DNA of 64,000 bases from a virus, in IMG/VR virus record IMGVR_UViG_3300017917_003339, positions 28,495-92,494 of that record; one strand, 5' to 3'. Below, piece by piece: positions 3,763 through 56,255 of the stretch (position 1 is the stretch's first letter; each line of letters starts with the position of its first letter). The position numbers and the translations under genes were made by a program. The notes under the pieces are model-generated. The model searched no databases. It was not told the origin of the DNA and saw nothing but the letters and a program-made list of their open reading frames with translations.

Positions 3763-5124
3763 TTAGTTAATAAAACCCATTTTGGATTTTTCTTTGTCTA
3801 CTTGGCTCATATAGAAGCCTTTGTACGACTCTTTGATAAGACTCACAGTGTCTTCAAGGGTCCAATTTTCATCTTCTTCTGACATTTCAATGATGTTGTC
3901 AGCCAAGTTAGCAATAAACGCACCAGTAATATTTGGTTTTTTACCACCAATGTTTTCGGTTAACGCATCATATACTTCTTTGATTCTCCATTTCTCTGGT
4001 AAGTGGATATCACAAACTTTGATGATTTGTTCTTCGTTCAAGAATGTGTAATCCAAAGTGAAGTTGAAACGACCTGGTCTCTCTGCCGCTTTGTCAACAA
4101 GTCCTTTGTCGTTGGTTGAAGCCAAAAGGCTGATTTTACGTTTCTTAACACCATCAAAGAATGATAAGAATTGACCAAGCATTCTTGTGTAGGACCCGTT
4201 ATCACGAGAACCCAAGTACAAGTCGATGTCGTCCATGATGATTACAGCGCTTTCAAAAATCTCACATGCTTCCATGATTGAATTCAAGTCACCAGTAGTG
4301 GTAAAGTCTGGAATCACAAAGGTAACATCTGGGATAAGACGACGACAGATTTCACGGATACTTTCGGTTTTTCCCGTACCAGGCTCGCCATTCAATAAGT
4401 ATCTAGCACTACCACCTCTGGCCACACGAGTAATAAAGTGTTCAATGTATCTACGTTGAACAGGAGTCATAATTAACTCGTTAGACGCCTCTTTGATGTC
4501 GATTACAGAGATACCCTTAAAACGACCCTCGATAAGAGAAATTTTAATACACTTGCCTTTGTACTCAGAGTTGTTGAACGCAAGAGATTTGATTTTCTTG
4601 AACGCTTCTTCGAACTCTTTGTATTTGAGACCTTTCTTGCTTGTGATGTGGATTTGGTTAATTAAATCACCTCTACCATCTGTAAACATTTTGGTTTGGA
4701 TAAACCACTCATTTTCATCCTCGGCAAACGTACAGTTAAACCAGAAAGAATCAATGTTGTTGAAAGAACCACCAATAGTAATTCTACCGATGTTATCAGT
4801 GTCACCGTACATTCTAACACTGATGTCTTTGTTGTTTTTTTTGACGTATGCGTCATGAAGAAAAGAATTTACGATAGCAAATTCAACAAACGATACTTCT
4901 TCTGTGTGTTCGTTGCTAGTATAGTCATCAAATTCATCTTCATCTAGGTCGATTGGCTTAGATTCTGGGTCCGTATAAGTAATTTCTGGTTCTTGCATGT
5001 TTTTACTTTTTTTATTTGATTTTAAAGAGTTAACAATGTCTTCAAATGGTAACTCTATTGTTTTAATCTTATTTGACATAAAATTTGTTTTAATGGTTAT
5101 TTTAATGGTGGTCAACTGATTCAA
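3763..5124 (-). CDS. AAA+ ATPase (true start probably 5079, MSNKIK)
   Basis: GEPGTGKT, IIMDDID, ASTND, AAERPGRF. Confidence 0.85.
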   Translation of the reverse strand: MNQLTTIKITIKTNFMSNKIKTIELPFEDIVNSLKSNKKSKNMQEPEITYTDPESKPIDLDEDEFDDYTSNEHTEEVSFVEFAIVNSFLHDAYVKKNNKDISVRMYGDTDNIGRITIGGSFNNIDSFWFNCTFAEDENEWFIQTKMFTDGRGDLINQIHITSKKGLKYKEFEEAFKKIKSLAFNNSEYKGKCIKISLIEGRFKGISVIDIKEASNELIMTPVQRRYIEHFITRVARGGSARYLLNGEPGTGKTESIREICRRLIPDVTFVIPDFTTTGDLNSIMEACEIFESAVIIMDDIDLYLGSRDNGSYTRMLGQFLSFFDGVKKRKISLLASTNDKGLVDKAAERPGRFNFTLDYTFLNEEQIIKVCDIHLPEKWRIKEVYDALTENIGGKKPNITGAFIANLADNIIEMSEEDENWTLEDTVSLIKESYKGFYMSQVDKEKSKMGFIN

Positions 5125-12377: not shown

Positions 12378-12788
12378 TTATTTTTTTTCTTGTCTCTTTA
12401 CCCTACGTAATTCTCTACCATTACCTTTATTCAGCGCACCAAATGTTGGTGTTAGAGAATGACAATTAGGGCAAAGTAACTTTAAATTATCCAAAGAATT
12501 ATTATCAGAATTCCCATCAATATGTTCTAATTGTATTGGAACGTTATTGGTGATTGGGTTTCTTTCATTCCAACCACATTCCATACATTTTTCACCATAT
12601 TTGAAAATTAAATAATTTCGATAATTATTGATATAAAGAGTGGTATCACCTTTTTCAATATTTTCAAATATTAATTTTCTTTTATGTTCACCTTGGCAGT
12701 TATTATTACAGTATACATTCCTATTAGGGATTTTACCACCGCAATTTAAACATTCTTTTTCTAATTTTTCTCTTTCTCTCACGGACAA
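12378..12788 (-). CDS. HNH homing endonuclease (start approximate; ORF-track start 12863 lies inside a tRNA half)
   Basis: CxxC, LEHIDGNSDNNSLDNLKLLCPNCH. Confidence 0.88.
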   Translation of the reverse strand: MSVREREKLEKECLNCGGKIPNRNVYCNNNCQGEHKRKLIFENIEKGDTTLYINNYRNYLIFKYGEKCMECGWNERNPITNNVPIQLEHIDGNSDNNSLDNLKLLCPNCHSLTPTFGALNKGNGRELRRVKRQEKK

Positions 12789-12837
12789 CCTTATTTTATT
12801 ATAAATATCGGTCGTCCGTGAAAAAGTTAAAAAAAAT

Positions 12838-12867
12838 TTGGCGCTCAACCAGCCGAGCTCCATCCGC
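12838..12867 (-). pseudogene. 5' half of a disrupted tRNA (Gly-type acceptor)
   Basis: GCGGATG-GA-GCTC-GGCTGGTT-GAGC-G-CCA. Confidence 0.8.
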
Positions 12868-15461: not shown

Positions 15462-15537
15462 TCGGGATGACTGGACTCGAACCAGCATGATGTCCTGCTC
15501 CCAAAGCAGGCGACTTAACCAATTAGTCCACATCCCG
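15462..15537 (-). tRNA. tRNA-Pro(UGG)
   Basis: CCTGC-TTTGGGA-GCAGG. Confidence 0.9.
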
Positions 15538-16074
15538 TTTAAATTTTTCTACATATTCTAAAACCGTTTCTTCTATTAAATTTCTATACCTACTATGCCA
15601 ATAAGCATGATGTGTTGCACATAGAGGTATTAAATTCTCAGGTTTATTATTGTTTCTATCCCCATCTAAATGGTGAACATCTAACAATAATTTTTCATCA
15701 CAAACAACACATTTATGTTCGTGGTGTAAGAAACATGTTGACCTGTATGCATGTTCTTTCCAGTTTGGGTTTTTATCACCACTTCTAAAGAAAGAGTTTG
15801 CACAAGCATGAGAACATGTAATTTTTTCTCTTTTTGAACCTGATTGAGTTTCAAATTCATTCTCACAAACAGGACAAATTTTAATTATTCGTTCATATTT
15901 GAGAAAATGTTTTTTCTTTCTATTAGGTTCAAATTTTAAACCATTTATTTCAAATAACGCATCTAACTTTTTATACCCAGCACCATTATTGCTGATATTT
16001 AACCTTTTACAAGCTTCATTTTTAGAACTACATTCTAGTATAATTTTTTCTAATTCTTCTTTTTCGATATTCAT
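15523..16074 (-). CDS. HNH homing endonuclease
   Basis: DVHHLDGDRNNNKPENLIPLCATHH; stop codon lies inside the downstream tRNA-Pro. Confidence 0.88.
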   Translation of the reverse strand: MNIEKEELEKIILECSSKNEACKRLNISNNGAGYKKLDALFEINGLKFEPNRKKKHFLKYERIIKICPVCENEFETQSGSKREKITCSHACANSFFRSGDKNPNWKEHAYRSTCFLHHEHKCVVCDEKLLLDVHHLDGDRNNNKPENLIPLCATHHAYWHSRYRNLIEETVLEYVEKFKRDVD

Positions 16075-25308: not shown

Positions 25309-25536
25309 TTGAATGGATAAACATTTCCAAGTGTTTACCCTAGCAGTTTTTACGCACTAGCACGGCTAAAAAACTACAAAAAACCTACTCGATGTTTTAT
25401 GCTTGGACAAGGGGCTGCACGAGCAACAACCCAGTTGTTCTGGTACAACTTTAAACCCCAAACTTGAGTCGTTGGCACTGAGTCAATAGTTCCGACACAA
25501 AGATTCCTAGGTTTTTGTGTGTTTCCTATTTAGTCG

Positions 25537-25613
25537 TGGGGGAAGCTGGACTCGAACCAGCGACCTTTCGCTCTCCTAAGACAGCGAACATCTGCCAACT
25601 GAAATATTCCCCC
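25537..25613 (-). ncRNA. tRNA-like RNA with 10-nt anticodon loop
   Basis: TTCGCT-GTCTTAGGAG-AGCGAA; good acceptor and T arm. Confidence 0.55.
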
Positions 25614-29823: not shown

Positions 29824-30348
29824 CTAAACAGACATCCTTTTAACCATCTTTCTGTATATTCTATCTTCAAAATCTTTCATCAAAGAATCTGGGATTCTAA
29901 TTCCTTTAGATTCGAATTCACCTATAATCTCACGTTTAAGAAATGTACCCTCAACAATTCCATCACCCCATTGGTCACACCAAAGTCCCCAGCTTTTCTT
30001 ACCAACAATCACAGCCTTGACTATGTTTGGGTGTCTGGTTACTATGGGTTTTCCACCAGAGTATTGTCCGTTATCGAATTTTCTAAATGTGTTTTTACCT
30101 TCGGATTCATTGACATCAAATTCAACATTGACGATAGAACCGCAAAAGGTAAGAATACCTTTCCTATAAGAAGATAGAAAGAAATTGAAGATTTCATTGA
30201 AGTTGTCGGAATACTTTGATAACTTTCTATCAAGTCTGTTACCAGTTTCCTTTTTGCGTAATTCAATACGCTCTTGTTTTGTTAGGCTCCCAAGCGGTCG
30301 CCTCCTGATTGTGTTGTTTTCATATTCTTGTGTTTTTTGTTTAACCAA
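29824..30348 (-). CDS. hypothetical protein
   Basis: ORF. Confidence 0.6.
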   Translation of the reverse strand: MVKQKTQEYENNTIRRRPLGSLTKQERIELRKKETGNRLDRKLSKYSDNFNEIFNFFLSSYRKGILTFCGSIVNVEFDVNESEGKNTFRKFDNGQYSGGKPIVTRHPNIVKAVIVGKKSWGLWCDQWGDGIVEGTFLKREIIGEFESKGIRIPDSLMKDFEDRIYRKMVKRMSV

Positions 30349-31085
30349 TTTAATTTATTCAAGTCAATACTTGAATTAGATTTTACAATATGACCATCTG
30401 GAAAATGTTTTATCATATCAGACATACTCAATACTGGAAAATCTTTGTCAAAGTTTGCGTTTGGATGTGACCAACCAAATTTAAACAACCAATTCAACAA
30501 CGCATCAACATCATAGTCATTATAATCATCCGTAGTACAGTTACCAGTTCTTTTAGATAACTTACTACCCTTATAAAACAATAAACCAGCATGTTGAACA
30601 TTTGGAAATTGTTTTTGACCATATACGTTGCAAATCATATCCCACAACTTTTGTTGTTTTGGTAAATTTGTAATGTGGTCCACACCTCTGATTATGTCTG
30701 TAATGTCATAATCATAGTCATCTAATATCGAAGCAAAATTATAGGTTGGATAACCGTTATCTCTAAGGATAACCATATCGTAATCTCCCATGTTTACGTT
30801 TAACGTACCATCGTCTTTTTTAAACCCTATAGCTGTTGCCACTTGTTTGTATCGGTCAAGTCTGCTACTTTGCTTAAATGTTACATCATAATTTAACCCA
30901 AAGTAATTCATTTGTTGATATATGAAATCTACATCTGAATCATTGTTCCTAGACAAATCTGTGTCATCGATTCTAAGGATAAAATTACCATCATTTGATT
31001 TACTCAATAAATAATTGAATAAAGCAGTACGTAATGTCCCTAAATGAAATTTGCCCGTTGGTGAAGGGGCAATTCTTGTTTTCAT
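30282..31085 (-). CDS. glutamyl-tRNA synthetase-like catalytic-domain protein (GluRS/GluQ-like)
   Basis: TRIAPSPTG.FHLG, LRIDDTD, IIRGVDH, KLSKR; no anticodon-binding domain. Confidence 0.85.
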   Translation of the reverse strand: MKTRIAPSPTGKFHLGTLRTALFNYLLSKSNDGNFILRIDDTDLSRNNDSDVDFIYQQMNYFGLNYDVTFKQSSRLDRYKQVATAIGFKKDDGTLNVNMGDYDMVILRDNGYPTYNFASILDDYDYDITDIIRGVDHITNLPKQQKLWDMICNVYGQKQFPNVQHAGLLFYKGSKLSKRTGNCTTDDYNDYDVDALLNWLFKFGWSHPNANFDKDFPVLSMSDMIKHFPDGHIVKSNSSIDLNKLNWLNKKHKNMKTTQSGGDRLGA

Positions 31086-31106
31086 AATACTATTTTTTAT
31101 ATTTTG

Positions 31107-31179
31107 TGGAGCTGACGGGAGTTGAACCCGCATCCTCTACCTTGCAAAGGTAGCGCTCAGCCAGTTGAGCTACAGCCCC
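31107..31179 (-). tRNA. tRNA-Ala(UGC)
   Basis: CTACC-TTTGCAA-GGTAG; G3:U70. Confidence 0.92.
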
Positions 31180-32030: not shown

Positions 32031-32669
32031 TTATTTTCTCCCTTTTAACCAACCTTCGTTTAAATAAGTTTCAAGGTCTTCTTTTTTAATTTTTTTGTTA
32101 GTACCATCCTTGGTTATCCAACATGTACCATATTGACTGTTTGTTTCACCAGTCCCAGTACCTTTTCTTTTTTCTGATATTAATTGTTTAGTTTCTTCCG
32201 AATGACATTTACCTTCAAAAGTATTATAATTAATTTTACCTAATTTATGTGCTTTTTTTAATGTTTCAGATGATATTTCTGTATGTTTTTTAAAAAACTC
32301 TTCATCAATTTTTAATTTGTCAGAAAACGCTTTTCCACCAGCCTTAATACATTTCTCCATATGTTCTTTATTAGCAAAACCACCTTGACCACCTTCTTTT
32401 AAATTCATACATAAACCATCAGATATCAACTCTTTTGTTATAATTTCAATCTCTCTAAGAACTAATTTTTCTCTTGTTGGTAAAAATTCTAATATTTCTT
32501 TTGTATGGTTTTCAACACCATATTTCCTAATACTATATCTTAATATCTTACCACTTCCCATGTAACCGTCATCTAATTTCGTAGTTGAATGCATTCCAAT
32601 ATACCATCTTCCTGTTACATTACATGTTGTTTTATATATGTAATGTATATTTGCTTTTTTTCTTGCCAT
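32031..32669 (-). CDS. GIY-YIG (Seg-like) homing endonuclease with NUMOD3
   Basis: YIYKTT..WYIGMH..YMGSG; HSEETKQLISE. Confidence 0.9.
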   Translation of the reverse strand: MARKKANIHYIYKTTCNVTGRWYIGMHSTTKLDDGYMGSGKILRYSIRKYGVENHTKEILEFLPTREKLVLREIEIITKELISDGLCMNLKEGGQGGFANKEHMEKCIKAGGKAFSDKLKIDEEFFKKHTEISSETLKKAHKLGKINYNTFEGKCHSEETKQLISEKRKGTGTGETNSQYGTCWITKDGTNKKIKKEDLETYLNEGWLKGRK

Positions 32670-32726: not shown

Positions 32727-32805
32727 TGGTAGCCTCGACGGGGCTCGAACCCGCATTGCACACCTTGAAAGGATGGCTTCCTAGTCCGATTTAGAAGACA
32801 AGGCC
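32727..32805 (-). tRNA. tRNA-Glu(UUC)
   Basis: CATC-CTTTCAA-GGTG, encoded CCA. Confidence 0.85.
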
Positions 32806-33488: not shown

Positions 33489-33525
33489 TGCAAATATACG
33501 AACTATTTTAATACTAGTCAAGTTT
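33489..33525 (-). promoter_or_regulatory. promoter of tRNA operon 2
   Basis: ACTTGACT...GTATATTTGCA. Confidence 0.75.
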
Positions 33526-33548: not shown

Positions 33549-34136
33549 TTATAATTCGTTGTTTCTCAATTGATTAAGATAAGCTTCCATTTCATCTTTT
33601 TCATCGTATTTGAATGTTTTTAACACTCTCACGCTTTTGGTTGAAATTGATTTACCACCAGCTGCTCCTTTCCTAACATATATTCTATCAGAATCTAACT
33701 GATGTGCTGGTACAGCTTGATAGTAATATTTAGGGTCTAAATATGCCATTGGTATTATGATTTCAATAACTGCATAATCTGGACCTTCAAATTCTTCTGT
33801 CATGTTGAATAAATCATCGTGGTGTTTATGTTTGAATTTAACACCTAAGTCAGTCATCATAGAAGGAACGTATTTTGCATCTGGATGTTGTTGTTTAATA
33901 TACTGCATCATCTTAGAACCAATTCCTAACCTTCTATATTTTGGTAAGACTATAATATTACCAACAGTCAATTCACCATCGTATATTGTGTATTGTACCA
34001 TTCCAAGAATGTCATCATTCAAATACACACCCAACTCATAATCATCTTGACCATGGTGATAACCCATGTGTTCTGTTCTATAATCTAACTCGCCAGTGAG
34101 CCCTTCTCTTAACAATTTTTTTATTAGTGCTTTCAT
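33549..34136 (-). CDS. GNAT acetyltransferase with MKALIKKLLRE N-terminus
   Basis: VLPKYRRLGIGSKMM; start corrected because the ORF-track start lies in tRNA sequence. Confidence 0.75.
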   Translation of the reverse strand: MKALIKKLLREGLTGELDYRTEHMGYHHGQDDYELGVYLNDDILGMVQYTIYDGELTVGNIIVLPKYRRLGIGSKMMQYIKQQHPDAKYVPSMMTDLGVKFKHKHHDDLFNMTEEFEGPDYAVIEIIIPMAYLDPKYYYQAVPAHQLDSDRIYVRKGAAGGKSISTKSVRVLKTFKYDEKDEMEAYLNQLRNNEL

Positions 34137-35464: not shown

Positions 35465-35492
35465 AAAAAACCCATCTGGTTAGGATGGGCTT
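35465..35492 (-). terminator. attenuator terminator of tRNA operon 3
   Basis: AAGCCCATC-CTAACCA-GATGGG-T6. Confidence 0.88.
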
Positions 35493-35518
35493 TTTGAGAG
35501 ATACTTATCTTATTCAGA

Positions 35519-35602
35519 TTAGTTAACACACAAGTAGCCCAGCTGTGTTTCCACTAGCAAGCATAAACCTAAAAGGACTAATATGTTAAAAGTATTTCTC
35601 AT
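35519..35602 (-). CDS. leader peptide 3 (L/V/C sensor): MRNTFNILVLLGLCLLVETQLGYLCVN
   Basis: Manual translation; antiterminator TGGGCT at 35536-35541. Confidence 0.88.
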   Translation of the reverse strand: MRNTFNILVLLGLCLLVETQLGYLCVN

Positions 35603-35631
35603 TGTTTTTTATGTGTTTCTAATTAAATATA

Positions 35632-35668
35632 TGCAAAGATACTAAAAGTTCTAATACAAGTCAAGTTT
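35632..35668 (-). promoter_or_regulatory. promoter of tRNA operon 3
   Basis: ACTTGACT...GTATCTTTGCA. Confidence 0.75.
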
Positions 35669-36199: not shown

Positions 36200-36529
36200 A
36201 TGATTATGGGATATGTTTATTTACTACTACAGATTGATTTTGAAGGCAAAGAGTCTTATAAGATTGGTATTACCAAAAATGACCCAAACCTTAGAGTTAA
36301 ACAACTTCAAACGGGGAACCCAAACAAGATTAGTCTTCATAGAAAATATGAAACACCTAACTACTTAAAGGTAGAAAAATGGCTTCATAGACAATACTTT
36401 GAAAAGACTGAGGCTAAAAATGAATGGAGAACACTTACAGATGAGCAAGTATTCTCCTTTCTTGATGACTGCCAAGCAGCCGATAATACCATTCAATTCT
36501 TGTTAGACAACAACAGCTTCTACAAATAA
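36200..36529 (+). CDS. GIY-YIG / T5orf172-family protein
   Basis: GYVYLL..YKIGIT..RVKQLQTGNP..EW. Confidence 0.85.
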   Translation: MIMGYVYLLLQIDFEGKESYKIGITKNDPNLRVKQLQTGNPNKISLHRKYETPNYLKVEKWLHRQYFEKTEAKNEWRTLTDEQVFSFLDDCQAADNTIQFLLDNNSFYK

Positions 36530-37021
36530 TACGTTGTACGCTTCTAAGAATGTTTTTTTGGCTTTTGCGTGGTCCCAACATTGAAAAATTTTGGTATCAT
36601 CTAATACCAAATTTTCCCATTCAATTTGTAACATTCTAGCATCAATTTCTTTTACCGTTTCATTCAACGGATATTCAAAACCAAATTTGTCAGCAATCAT
36701 AAGCATAAGATTGTGTTCACATTCTTTGTATTCTGGTAGTCTAGCTTTTATGGGTGTTGGAATGTCGCCCAAATAAGCTTCACTCGCATCATGCATAAGT
36801 GCAGCTTTTTTGTCTTCAAAAGAAGATGCTTTCATCATACACATAACACTGTGTTGTGCTACGGAATAATGCCTGTTCAAATGACCACCAAATCTAGGCA
36901 CCGATGCCAATGCATGTGCTATGTCTTCAATAGCGATGACATCTTTTGTTGGTTCAAAAACATTTATAAAGAGTCCAGAATTAGTTCTGATACATCCTTT
37001 AGGTGATTCGTGTATATCCAT
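36503..37021 (-). CDS. HD-domain phosphohydrolase (YfdR/5'-deoxynucleotidase-like)
   Basis: IAHALA..RFGGH, YSVAQHSV, LMHDASEAYLGDIPTP. Confidence 0.9.
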   Translation of the reverse strand: MDIHESPKGCIRTNSGLFINVFEPTKDVIAIEDIAHALASVPRFGGHLNRHYSVAQHSVMCMMKASSFEDKKAALMHDASEAYLGDIPTPIKARLPEYKECEHNLMLMIADKFGFEYPLNETVKEIDARMLQIEWENLVLDDTKIFQCWDHAKAKKTFLEAYNVLFVEAVVV

Positions 37022-37024
37022 AGA

Positions 37025-38275
37025 TTAAAAATTAAATGGCCAAAAATTGAATTTGGACTTTTTAGGTTTGTAAAACTCTTTTCTGATTTTGGTAAGAAGT
37101 TTATTTACCAACTCTTTGTCTACGTTATTAGGTAGATTTGAGTTTTCGAATACTTCATCCATATTTTCAATGGCTTTGTCAGCGATGTCAATGAGCGAGT
37201 CTAAATCAACTTCACCACGTCTGATTGCTAGAAGTTCTTGAGCATCTGGTCGTCTTACGATAATACCCTTACCTTCACCAATTTCAGTAGCCATTCTAAT
37301 AAGACGCATACAGTGCATCATATTCTTACCGTCAATTCTTTGACCATGTTCTTGAGTTTCAACGTAACGAGCTTCGTTACGGTTCTCAAGCCATTCTTGG
37401 TATTCTTTGTAATCCTTACAGTGTTCTGAATAACCGTCTTTGTTATAAACGATTGTACAGATTGATTTCTCACCCTTTGGAATACTAGAAAGACGTAGTT
37501 GGTTAGAGATACCGTAGTTAACCTTACCATCTTCATCTTCATGACCAGTGTTAACAAGTCCTTTATACCCAAGACCCATTGGCTTGCCAGCATCTTTGAG
37601 AATTTGTTTCATTTTCTCTCTGGTTTCTTCATCATTAGCATTTGTATGAATCATTGCTGCTGTTCTATCATAAAACAAAGCATAAACATCTCTAGCGTTT
37701 GGTACATTTACAGCACCGATGAATTTTTCGTTGAAACCACGACCTTTGTTCCATTTTCTCCATGGGATTGATTTTTCACCTTCAAGAACATAACAGAAGT
37801 CTAACAAGTCTTTTCTTGTTACCTTGTCTTTCTCCCAGTTTTGTTTCTTGTTAAGACCCTTGGCTTTCTTGATTTGCTGTCTTGCATAACCACCAAATGA
37901 ATCCTTACAGATTTTGGTAATGAAGTCTTCTTTGTGCGCAAGAATAAGGTCAAAAAGCGGGTGCTTATGAACAATACAATCCTCTGGGCTGTTAAGAAGT
38001 TCAAGAACTGTTGGGTTGTTAGAACCCATTAGTTCAAGGAAACGCCTAATCTCCCAACCAGTGTAATCTTTATTTACGTTAATTTGTTCTACATACCCAG
38101 TACCTAGGATGTAATCCTCAGGCAATATGTAAACAAATTTCTTGTCGATGTCACTTGCAGGTGTTTGCGTACCGTATGCTTGAGAACCGATAATGGTTTC
38201 AAACAAGATAAGGCCGTTTTCCACAAGGAACTCATGTGTTATTTGTTTACTCATAATTCTTTTAATTTTTTGCAA
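37025..38275 (-). CDS. nucleotidyltransferase domain protein
   Basis: GSQAYG..SDID, NPTVLELL, KNMMHCMRL. Confidence 0.85.
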   Translation of the reverse strand: MQKIKRIMSKQITHEFLVENGLILFETIIGSQAYGTQTPASDIDKKFVYILPEDYILGTGYVEQINVNKDYTGWEIRRFLELMGSNNPTVLELLNSPEDCIVHKHPLFDLILAHKEDFITKICKDSFGGYARQQIKKAKGLNKKQNWEKDKVTRKDLLDFCYVLEGEKSIPWRKWNKGRGFNEKFIGAVNVPNARDVYALFYDRTAAMIHTNANDEETREKMKQILKDAGKPMGLGYKGLVNTGHEDEDGKVNYGISNQLRLSSIPKGEKSICTIVYNKDGYSEHCKDYKEYQEWLENRNEARYVETQEHGQRIDGKNMMHCMRLIRMATEIGEGKGIIVRRPDAQELLAIRRGEVDLDSLIDIADKAIENMDEVFENSNLPNNVDKELVNKLLTKIRKEFYKPKKSKFNFWPFNF

Positions 38276-55479: not shown

Positions 55480-56127
55480 TTATTTTCTCCCTTTTAACCA
55501 ACCATCATTTAGATAAGTTTCAAGGTCTTCTTTTTTAATCTTTTTATTAGCACCATCCTTGGTTATCCAACAAGTACCATATTGACTATTTGATTCACCA
55601 ACACCAGTACCTTTTCTTATTTCAGATATCAACTGTTTAGTTTCTTCAGAATGTTTTTTCCCATTCCAATCATAATTAACATTCCTATCAATTTTACCTT
55701 CTTCATATGCTTTTTTAATCGATTTAGACAACGTATCACTTTTTTTCTTATTCCACTCTGGGTCTTGTCTTAAAAGTTTTTGTTTTTCATTTGATTTAAT
55801 AGCATTTAATTTTTGTTCTTCACTAGTAAACCCACGACCACCTTCACCGCCAACAATTAAATTCATACATAAGTACTCTTTAATTAATTCTTTATTAACT
55901 ATCTCACGTTCTCGCTTAGCTAATTTTTCTCTAGTTGGTAAATATTCAAGGATTTCTTTTGTGTGGTTTTCTACGCCATACTTTCTAATTGAATATCTCA
56001 ACCTTTTACCACTTCCCATATAACCATCTTCTAGGTTACACGTACTATGCATCCCTACATAATATTTTCCAGTTACATTACATGTTGTTTTATATATGTA
56101 ATGTATTGTTTTTTCTTTTCTTGCCAT
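55480..56127 (-). CDS. GIY-YIG (Seg-like) homing endonuclease, paralog of 32031-32669
   Basis: MARKEKTIHYIYKTTCNVTGKYYVGMH; near-identical C-terminus. Confidence 0.9.
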   Translation of the reverse strand: MARKEKTIHYIYKTTCNVTGKYYVGMHSTCNLEDGYMGSGKRLRYSIRKYGVENHTKEILEYLPTREKLAKREREIVNKELIKEYLCMNLIVGGEGGRGFTSEEQKLNAIKSNEKQKLLRQDPEWNKKKSDTLSKSIKKAYEEGKIDRNVNYDWNGKKHSEETKQLISEIRKGTGVGESNSQYGTCWITKDGANKKIKKEDLETYLNDGWLKGRK

Positions 56128-56180
56128 TGTCGTATATCTTTTTAATATAAATATACGACAAAGTACAAAAAAGTCAAGTG

Positions 56181-56255
56181 GGTGACTGATGGGGTTCGAA
56201 CCCACGGCCTTCTGAACCACAATCAGACGCTCTAACCAGCTGAGCTACAGCCACC
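56181..56255 (-). tRNA. tRNA-His(GUG)
   Basis: TCTGA-TTGTGGT-TCAGA. Confidence 0.93.

Follow-up and report, generated by a model that had tools for sequence, protein, structure and literature searches.

Layout of the Cys/Val/Leu tRNA cassette

The window analysed here, a stretch of 64,000 nucleotides, belongs to a 92.5-kb contig deposited as an IMG/VR virus record, and as this contig is estimated to be only 26% complete, the phage from which it comes must be a giant one. All 46 of the tRNA genes in the window lie on its minus strand. Between 35664 and 35465 that strand carries, in this order, a putative promoter, an open reading frame (ORF) of 27 codons, and a hairpin followed by a tract of six Ts, after which comes tRNA-Cys, the first gene of a tRNA array (Table 1). 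The promoter, whose TTGACT and TATCTTTG elements are spaced by 20 nt, is inferred from the consensus, without transcription start site data; it is near-identical across the four cassettes of the window and is also kept in relatives. Upstream of the ORF is an A-rich stretch without a Shine-Dalgarno sequence. The Leu codons of the ORF are TTA (three times), TTG (twice), CTT, CTA and CTG, its Val codons are GTC, GTG and GTT, and its Cys codons are TGC and TGT. The hairpin and its T6 tract (35495-35465) have a folding energy of -12.5 to -14.2 kcal/mol, varying with the stretch that is folded. A first reading of the locus, made from the letters without database searches (the sequence-only reading), had listed this ORF, its Leu, Val and Cys codons, the isotypes of the array and the RNA pairings discussed below, and we find every one of them where it had been placed.

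Between 35451 and 34165 the array holds exactly seven tRNAs, a result on which ARAGORN and Rfam agree, and they are the ones that had been recognized from the sequence: Leu UAA, CAA, UAG and AAG, two Val UAC and Cys GCA, with no other isotype. Between 35451 and position 33521, where the promoter of the following cassette lies, we find no promoter-like or terminator-like sites. Because the array lacks an internal promoter-like site, its Cys, Val and Leu tRNAs could be obtained solely by read-through of the hairpin. The array closes with a gene for a GNAT-family acetyltransferase, which is probably co-transcribed with it; the function of this enzyme is not known, and it could conceivably acetylate aminoacyl-tRNA or a host factor.

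Several other features of the region touch on tRNA biology. A second type of promoter-like site (TTGGA.ATTAAAAAATAAGTTGTATCTTTG) occurs twice on the minus strand, in near-identical copies at 33145-33116 and 55104-55075, inside arrays 2 and 4 and after their first tRNAs, while array 3, that of the Cys/Val/Leu cassette, is without any. Owing to these internal sites, parts of arrays 2 and 4 could bypass the attenuator proposed below. Genes resembling homing endonucleases (GIY-YIG/NUMOD3, NUMOD3 and HNH) stand within or beside the tRNA arrays, as they do in the tRNA regions of T4 and T5. At the end of the Phe/Glu/Asp/Ala array, positions 30282-31133 of the minus strand encode a 283-aa protein that consists only of the catalytic domain of a class I Glu/Gln tRNA synthetase (Pfam tRNA-synt_1c, E = 1.7e-46), and its size and domain suggest that it is GluQ-RS-like. 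ARAGORN calls a tRNA with anticodon TCA, typed SeC, at 32727-32805 (minus strand), and one with anticodon CTA, typed Pyl, at 228804 of a complete relative (G001). It is possible that these two are opal and amber suppressors, a hint, if so, that some of the phage genome has recoded stop codons. At 25536-25613 (minus strand) the same program lists a tRNA-like gene whose anticodon loop is irregular. On the upstream side of the cassette, the region 36200-38275 forms a neighbourhood with a flavour of RNA repair.

Table 1. Features of the Cys/Val/Leu cassette and its surroundings, in window positions
Feature	Positions	Strand	Remark
RlaP-like RNA-repair nucleotidyltransferase	37025-38275		upstream of cassette
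HD/YfbR-like phosphohydrolase match	36503-37021		weak, below cut-off; upstream of cassette
T5orf172/MUG113 protein	36200-36529	+	upstream of cassette
Putative promoter, Bacteroidota type	35634-35664	-	-33 element TTGACT at 35664-35659; -7 element TATCTTTG at 35641-35634
Leader ORF, 27 codons + TAA	35519-35602	-	ATG start; kept in 22 distinct relatives
Region 1, TTAACATAT + TAGTCC	35575-35589	-	5' half of predicted protector helix; overlaps codons 5-10
Putative sensor run, codons 8-17	35552-35581	-	9/10 codons Leu, Val or Cys
Region 2	35523-35541	-	TGGGCT (35541-35536) can pair with region 1 or terminator 5' arm
Region 3, terminator 5' arm	35484-35495	-	AGCCCA (35491-35486) complementary to region 2
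Region 4, terminator 3' arm GATGGG + T6 tract	35465-35476	-	ends 13 nt before tRNA-Cys
tRNA-Cys(GCA)	35451-35380	-	array position 1
105-aa ORF	35378-35061	-	between tRNA-Cys and first tRNA-Val
tRNA-Val(UAC)	35048-34971	-	ARAGORN, Rfam
tRNA-Leu(UAA)	34869-34783	-	ARAGORN, Rfam
tRNA-Leu(CAA)	34778-34694	-	ARAGORN, Rfam
46-aa Cys-rich ORF	34661-34521	-	between Leu(CAA) and Leu(UAG)
tRNA-Leu(UAG)	34510-34427	-	ARAGORN, Rfam
tRNA-Val(UAC), second copy	34418-34343	-	ARAGORN, Rfam
tRNA-Leu(AAG)	34248-34165	-	last tRNA of array
GNAT-family acetyltransferase gene	33549-34136	-	array tail; promoter of next cassette directly after, at 33521
Homing-endonuclease-like genes	32031-32669, 55480-56220, 15523-16074, 12378-12863	-	GIY-YIG/NUMOD3, NUMOD3, HNH

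Leader codons and the isotypes of the arrays

The promoter of the Cys/Val/Leu cassette occurs four times in the contig, each time followed by an ORF of 27-33 codons, a hairpin with a T-tract, and a tRNA array; the other three cassettes are at 16987-16717, 33521-33265 and 56824-56597. The four arrays have no isotype in common and jointly cover all 20 amino acids. When codons 2-18 of each leader are compared with the isotype set of each array, the matches on the diagonal are 17/17, 13/17, 9/17 and 16/17, and those off the diagonal range from 0 to 4. Leader and array thus agree at 55 of 68 positions, and in 2,000,000 random partitions, in which the 20 amino acids were split into sets of the same sizes as the arrays, the maximum was 49 and the mean 17. 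A complete relative of 368.5 kb shares all four cassettes and divides the amino acids among them in the same way. Over this fixed span the Leu/Val/Cys leader is the weakest of the four (9/17, binomial P = 5e-4), and 14 of its 27 codons encode something other than Leu, Val or Cys. A single call of tRNA-Ser(AGA) at 3820-3915 of the contig (G000), outside the window and far from the Ser-containing array 4, is the sole exception to the isotype partition in the contig and may be a false call.

Within the Leu/Val/Cys leader the matching codons are concentrated in codons 8-17, nine of which specify Leu, Val or Cys. We compared this run with 228 windows of ten residues and equal hydrophobicity from the proteomes of this phage and of the complete relative; none reached the same count, and such windows typically contain four or five of these residues. 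In a six-frame translation, 22 of 497,024 stop-free windows attain nine in ten. Since short ORFs are frequent locally (6 kb contain 93 with 20 aa or more), it could be argued that the leader is a chance ORF in an AT-rich spacer beside an ordinary terminator, but the composition statistics, the four-fold paralogy and the conservation in 22 relatives all contradict this idea, and we regard its chances as negligible.

Relatives of the cassette were gathered by way of the neighbouring RlaP-like nucleotidyltransferase, which yielded 80 IMG/VR loci, in about thirty of which the same Cys-Val-Leu array precedes a Phe-Glu-Asp-Ala array. A leader of 24-27 codons is present in 22 of 22 distinct upstream regions (21, plus one with a GTG start, L034), with a core rich in Leu, Val and Cys. 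Start, frame and stop are retained in every one of the 22, the position of the stop is fixed, and such gaps as the DNA alignment shows within the sensor are multiples of three. From the terminator to tRNA-Cys there are 9-23 nt in most relatives; the terminator lies farther upstream in a few (L014, L034), and in L034 a 44-aa Cys-rich ORF is found between it and tRNA-Cys. The more distant arrays L070 and L074 have no leader, and there the promoter stands directly before the tRNAs. The region gave no megablast match to GenBank phages, the exact pattern of the promoter had no hit in IMG/VR, and the anchor protein of cassette 1 retrieved only two loci. No tRNA genes are found near the nucleotidyltransferase homolog of Tenacibaculum phage PTm1 or that of the huge phage LR745206, and thus no cultured model emerged. 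The nearest GenBank relatives of the neighbouring gene belong to uncultured huge phages, Tenacibaculum phages and Prevotella Lak phages, and these relatives, together with the Bacteroidota-type promoters, fit a Bacteroidota host. Many of the related loci also have an overlapping short ORF in another frame (with its ATG inside TTATGT), which we set aside as a candidate because it varies in length and does not match the array; we take it to be a by-product of the conserved DNA.

The sequence-only reading had proposed comparing homologs for conserved composition as against conserved sequence, and the outcome of that comparison is divided. Composition is kept: in codons 6-19 of 21 leaders, 70% are Leu, Val or Cys and 22% are polar, Phe is absent, and Ile makes up 13 of 294, mostly as ATA at one aligned position. 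At one conserved Leu column 12 phages use TTA and 7 use CTT, so that two nucleotides differ and the amino acid stays the same; even at the most variable column, 16 of 22 sequences have Val, Leu or Cys. But the L-C-L-L-V-V motif in the core is kept in its residue order, which means that composition is not alone in constraining the leader, and a function of the peptide cannot be fully excluded. In a sister cassette (Lys/Thr/Tyr/Gln/Pro/Gly), the order of the residues is shuffled among relatives and the set of residues is kept.

The partial conservation of the core as sequence, and its hydrophobicity, are what one would expect if the ORF encoded a small hydrophobic membrane peptide acting in trans, with the tRNAs transcribed constitutively through a leaky terminator. 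However, a run of ~13 hydrophobic residues is too short to span a membrane, and relatives break it with Asn, Gln, Ser, His and Thr. With no Phe and little Ile it is also unlike every hydrophobic segment in the phage proteomes. Moreover, its C-terminal half is fixed by RNA pairing, and the three paralogous leaders are hydrophilic or acidic with the same layout. We therefore give a membrane peptide very little credence; that this leader could be mistaken for a small membrane protein had been pointed out when only the letters had been read.

Codon usage within the leaders provides a further comparison. GTT accounts for 3% of leader Val codons versus 53% genome-wide, GTA and GTG, which the phage anticodon UAC decodes, are enriched, and the GTC that is frequent in leaders sits in the structural TAGTCC motif. 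One relative (L021) has an array of Cys and Leu tRNAs only, with no tRNA-Val by either tool, and its leader has 1 Val codon versus 3-6 in the other 20 leaders. Both the avoidance of GTT and this loss of Val codons fit a tRNA sensor. In another locus (L024) the neighbouring leader of the Phe/Glu/Asp/Ala type retains Ala codons, and no tRNA-Ala was found nearby. A third locus (L028) looked like a similar exception to the match of codons and array and was ruled out, as its tRNA-Asp is present but missed by ARAGORN. The use of five different Leu codons, which had been singled out as a mark of the sensor, does not carry the weight placed on it: five distinct codons among eight have P ~0.06 under genome codon usage, one of them (CTG) lies in region 2 and outside the effective sensor, and the feature is not conserved, relatives having three or four kinds. 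Across relatives, the choice of Leu codons is not correlated with the Leu isoacceptors of the array, and for this reason we rejected matching at the level of isoacceptors (TTG with Leu-CAA, CTT with Leu-AAG).

That Leu codon choice is independent of the isoacceptors present raises the possibility that the cassettes sense general translation capacity and open whenever translation slows or ribosomes are lacking, for example through host shut-off or a ribosome-targeting defence, and that the codon match is only a weak or secondary tuning. The one promoter and one RNA scaffold that the four cassettes have in common could be read in the same way, as could the half of the codons in the Leu/Val/Cys leader that fall outside its own set. 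If general capacity were the signal, however, there would be no reason for each of four leaders to be composed of the amino acids that its array serves, and the avoidance of GTT and the loss of Val codons in the absence of tRNA-Val would go unexplained. In addition, folds calculated without any ribosome predict termination, not read-through. We consider a sensor of general capacity unlikely.

Alternative pairings in the leader RNA

The minimum-free-energy fold of the full-length leader consists of the terminator and a 1:2 helix (35589-35575 with 35541-35523), in which TTAACATAT/TAGTCC (35589-35575) is paired with GGGCTA...GTGTGTTAA (35540-35523); the partner of GTGTGTTAA, the distal part of region 2, is region 1. 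A stalled ribosome was represented by a mask that covers the RNA to ~10 nt past the stalled A site (codons 8-16), with the 3' arm of the terminator still untranscribed. Under these conditions, with region 1 masked and the 3' arm absent, TGGGCT (35541-35536) pairs with AGCCCA (35491-35486). An equivalent 2:3 helix forms under the mask in 4 of 4 cassettes, in each with a sequence of its own. In complete transcripts the terminator is still the most stable fold despite the mask, save in one cassette, so the switch would have to be kinetic and co-transcriptional, as it is in the classical systems.

The 2:3 pairing, TGGGCT with AGCCCA, had been proposed in the sequence-only reading, and beyond forming under the mask it covaries across homologs. 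Among 21 of these, duplexes between region 2 and the terminator arm have a mean energy of -13.4 kcal/mol when the two are cognate versus -11.1 kcal/mol when they are not, and none of 20,000 permutations was as good (p<5e-5). The six-pair core of the helix is nearly always retained, with one pair changed from U-A to C-G in 7 sequences. Divergent terminators (CCCGAAG, GTCCGA) are accompanied by matching segments of region 2; in L034 (14142-14219), the relative whose leader starts with GTG, region 2 and the terminator arm have changed together to TCGGAC/GTCCGA. The terminator's own helix keeps 88% pairing over 21 sequences, and at six of its pairs both partners have changed in a compensatory way.

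The protector helix has fared less evenly. Its pairing had been listed in the sequence-only reading and is present in the minimum-free-energy fold, and in the window the 1:2 duplex has z = -3.0, but over the homologs its mean z is -1.25, cognate and non-cognate duplexes do not separate (p = 0.14), and covariation across homologs gives it no support. Both of its sides are conserved; its distal part aligns poorly and is 47% paired on a fixed alignment. The 1:2 helix therefore remains a thermodynamically plausible prediction that lacks covariation support. A point of geometry also bears on region 2: the distance from the GGG core to the stop downstream of it is 9-14 nt in most relatives and a borderline 15-20 nt in the window. 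As the ORF of the window is two codons longer than that of most relatives, a terminating ribosome would barely reach TGGGCT. Within the sensor, a hairpin GTTTAC ... GTAGAC (columns 55-74 of alignment A3) is conserved, with compensatory changes at two of its pairs; it spans codons 14-20 in most relatives, and the window has its own, different version. This hairpin may be a pause site for RNA polymerase or the apical part of the 1:2 helix.

Given that alternative RNA structures are present and covary, one might suppose that the RNA acts alone, as a riboswitch-like element, a leader that binds tRNA in the manner of a T-box, or a protein-binding leader, and that the ORF is incidental. Yet no Rfam family other than tRNA passes its threshold on the cassette when leader families and the T-box are included in the search (Phe_leader, the highest-scoring leader family, has 19.4 bits where 55 are required, and the T-box gives no match). 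The retention of start, frame and stop in 22 relatives, the sensor gaps in multiples of three, and the synonymous double-nucleotide changes of Leu codons also speak against an incidental ORF, and they imply that the ORF is under a constraint of the kind that translation imposes. An RNA-only switch is in our judgement highly improbable.

Proposed attenuation of tRNA genes

We think it quite probable that the cassette is a multivalent leader-peptide attenuator in the style of the trp and ilv systems, which raises transcription of the tRNAs when the decoding of Leu, Val or Cys codons is slow. The sequence-only reading had taken it for an attenuator, and what we observe upholds that view: the anatomy of the cassette, the match of codons to arrays across the four paralogs, the conserved frame of the leader, the covariation of antiterminator (2:3) and terminator, the absence of an internal promoter-like site, and the loss of Val codons in L021. 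That the ORF is translated, that stalling leads to read-through, and that tRNA supply during infection is the signal are inferences, for which there are no transcript, ribosome-profiling or reporter data.

In the attenuator that we propose, host RNA polymerase would start at the conserved promoter and a ribosome would load on the 27-codon leader. With Leu-, Val- and Cys-tRNAs plentiful, the ribosome would reach the stop codon, where it would either sit on region 2 or free regions 1 and 2 to pair again; in both cases the hairpin and its T6 tract would form, and transcription would end 13 nt before tRNA-Cys. Without any ribosome, the 1:2 helix is predicted to form and the terminator after it. 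If one of the Leu, Val or Cys tRNAs were scarce, the ribosome could stall with its A site at codons 8-15 and cover region 1, and TGGGCT would then pair with AGCCCA before the 3' arm is transcribed. This 2:3 helix would pre-empt the terminator, and polymerase would go on into the seven tRNA genes and the ORFs interspersed among them. The three sister cassettes would exert the same control for the other 17 amino acids. Because the product tRNA itself would relieve the stall, the arrangement would amount to negative feedback on tRNA supply.

Multivalent leaders are known from the branched-chain amino-acid operons of enterobacteria, where ivbL, the leader of ilvBN, has Val and Leu codons and ilvL, the leader of ilvGMEDA, has Leu, Val and Ile codons; leuL, trpL, hisL and thrL are other leaders of this kind. 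The phage cassette resembles attenuators of the ilv type in that a short ORF with several kinds of regulatory codons comes right after the promoter, in having its stop codon in or beside region 2, and in three mutually exclusive helices (2:3, 3:4 and the predicted 1:2), with an intrinsic terminator standing ahead of the genes under control. The testable structural criteria of the leader-peptide attenuator class are all fulfilled, with the exception of 1:2 covariation. The cassette differs from the ilv type in its targets, which are tRNA genes, small ORFs and a GNAT gene rather than biosynthetic or synthetase genes, and in that the stall would be relieved by the product tRNA itself. It is also phage-borne, with a Bacteroidota-type promoter and no Shine-Dalgarno sequence, and is one of four cassettes that jointly cover 20 amino acids, and neither sequence nor an Rfam family links it to the ilv type. 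The pheM leader of pheST and the T-boxes attenuate synthetases in response to one amino acid each, and T-boxes bind uncharged tRNA without a ribosome. With these systems the cassette would share a decoding component tuned to the state of the cognate tRNA, and it would differ from them in controlling tRNA genes and in responding to several amino acids.

Clustered tRNA genes with small ORFs and homing endonucleases are a feature of T4, T5 and huge Bacteroidota phages, and the tRNA genes described here are interspersed in the same manner; to our knowledge, no leader-peptide control of those clusters has been described. The trn operon of Anabaena sp. PCC 7120 is reported to be a long accessory tRNA array that is silent under standard conditions and is switched on under translational stress (PMC8421152), and its control is attributed to the repressor TrcR (PMC10272220). 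The phage arrays would be like the trn operon in being accessory and regulated, but the operon is carried on a bacterial megaplasmid, is governed by a protein repressor and is not divided by amino acid, whereas the phage arrays are so divided and have putative leader-peptide sensors to match. In full texts, among which most subscription journals are missing, we found no published case, phage or other, of tRNA genes attenuated by a leader peptide. The class of attenuator is known; tRNA genes as its target would be new, insofar as we found no published account of them.

The purpose and timing of phage tRNA genes are debated, and they have been held to compensate for codon usage, to replace a degraded pool or to allow escape from tRNA-cleaving defences. 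The sequence alone does not tell which natural trigger would act on the cassette: a mismatch in codon usage, a lost host pool, defences that cleave tRNAs, or starvation for amino acids. We speculate, tentatively and with more doubt than confidence, that the four leader-gated tRNA operons form a demand-sensing system for the 20 amino acids, in which each operon is turned on only when its codons are read slowly, for instance when the host pool is degraded or is cleaved by anticodon-nuclease defences, and which would serve as a counter-defence and homeostat and not as a nutritional sensor.

If the attenuator reading is true, it is the phage itself that gauges decoding speed for each set of codons and answers with the matching tRNAs. 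Attenuation would then extend to RNA genes whose product relieves the stall, and to signals of the Bacteroidota type. The four cassettes would be compact, orthogonal sensors of tRNA supply and potential tools, and the question of why phages carry tRNAs would become one that can be tested with a reporter.
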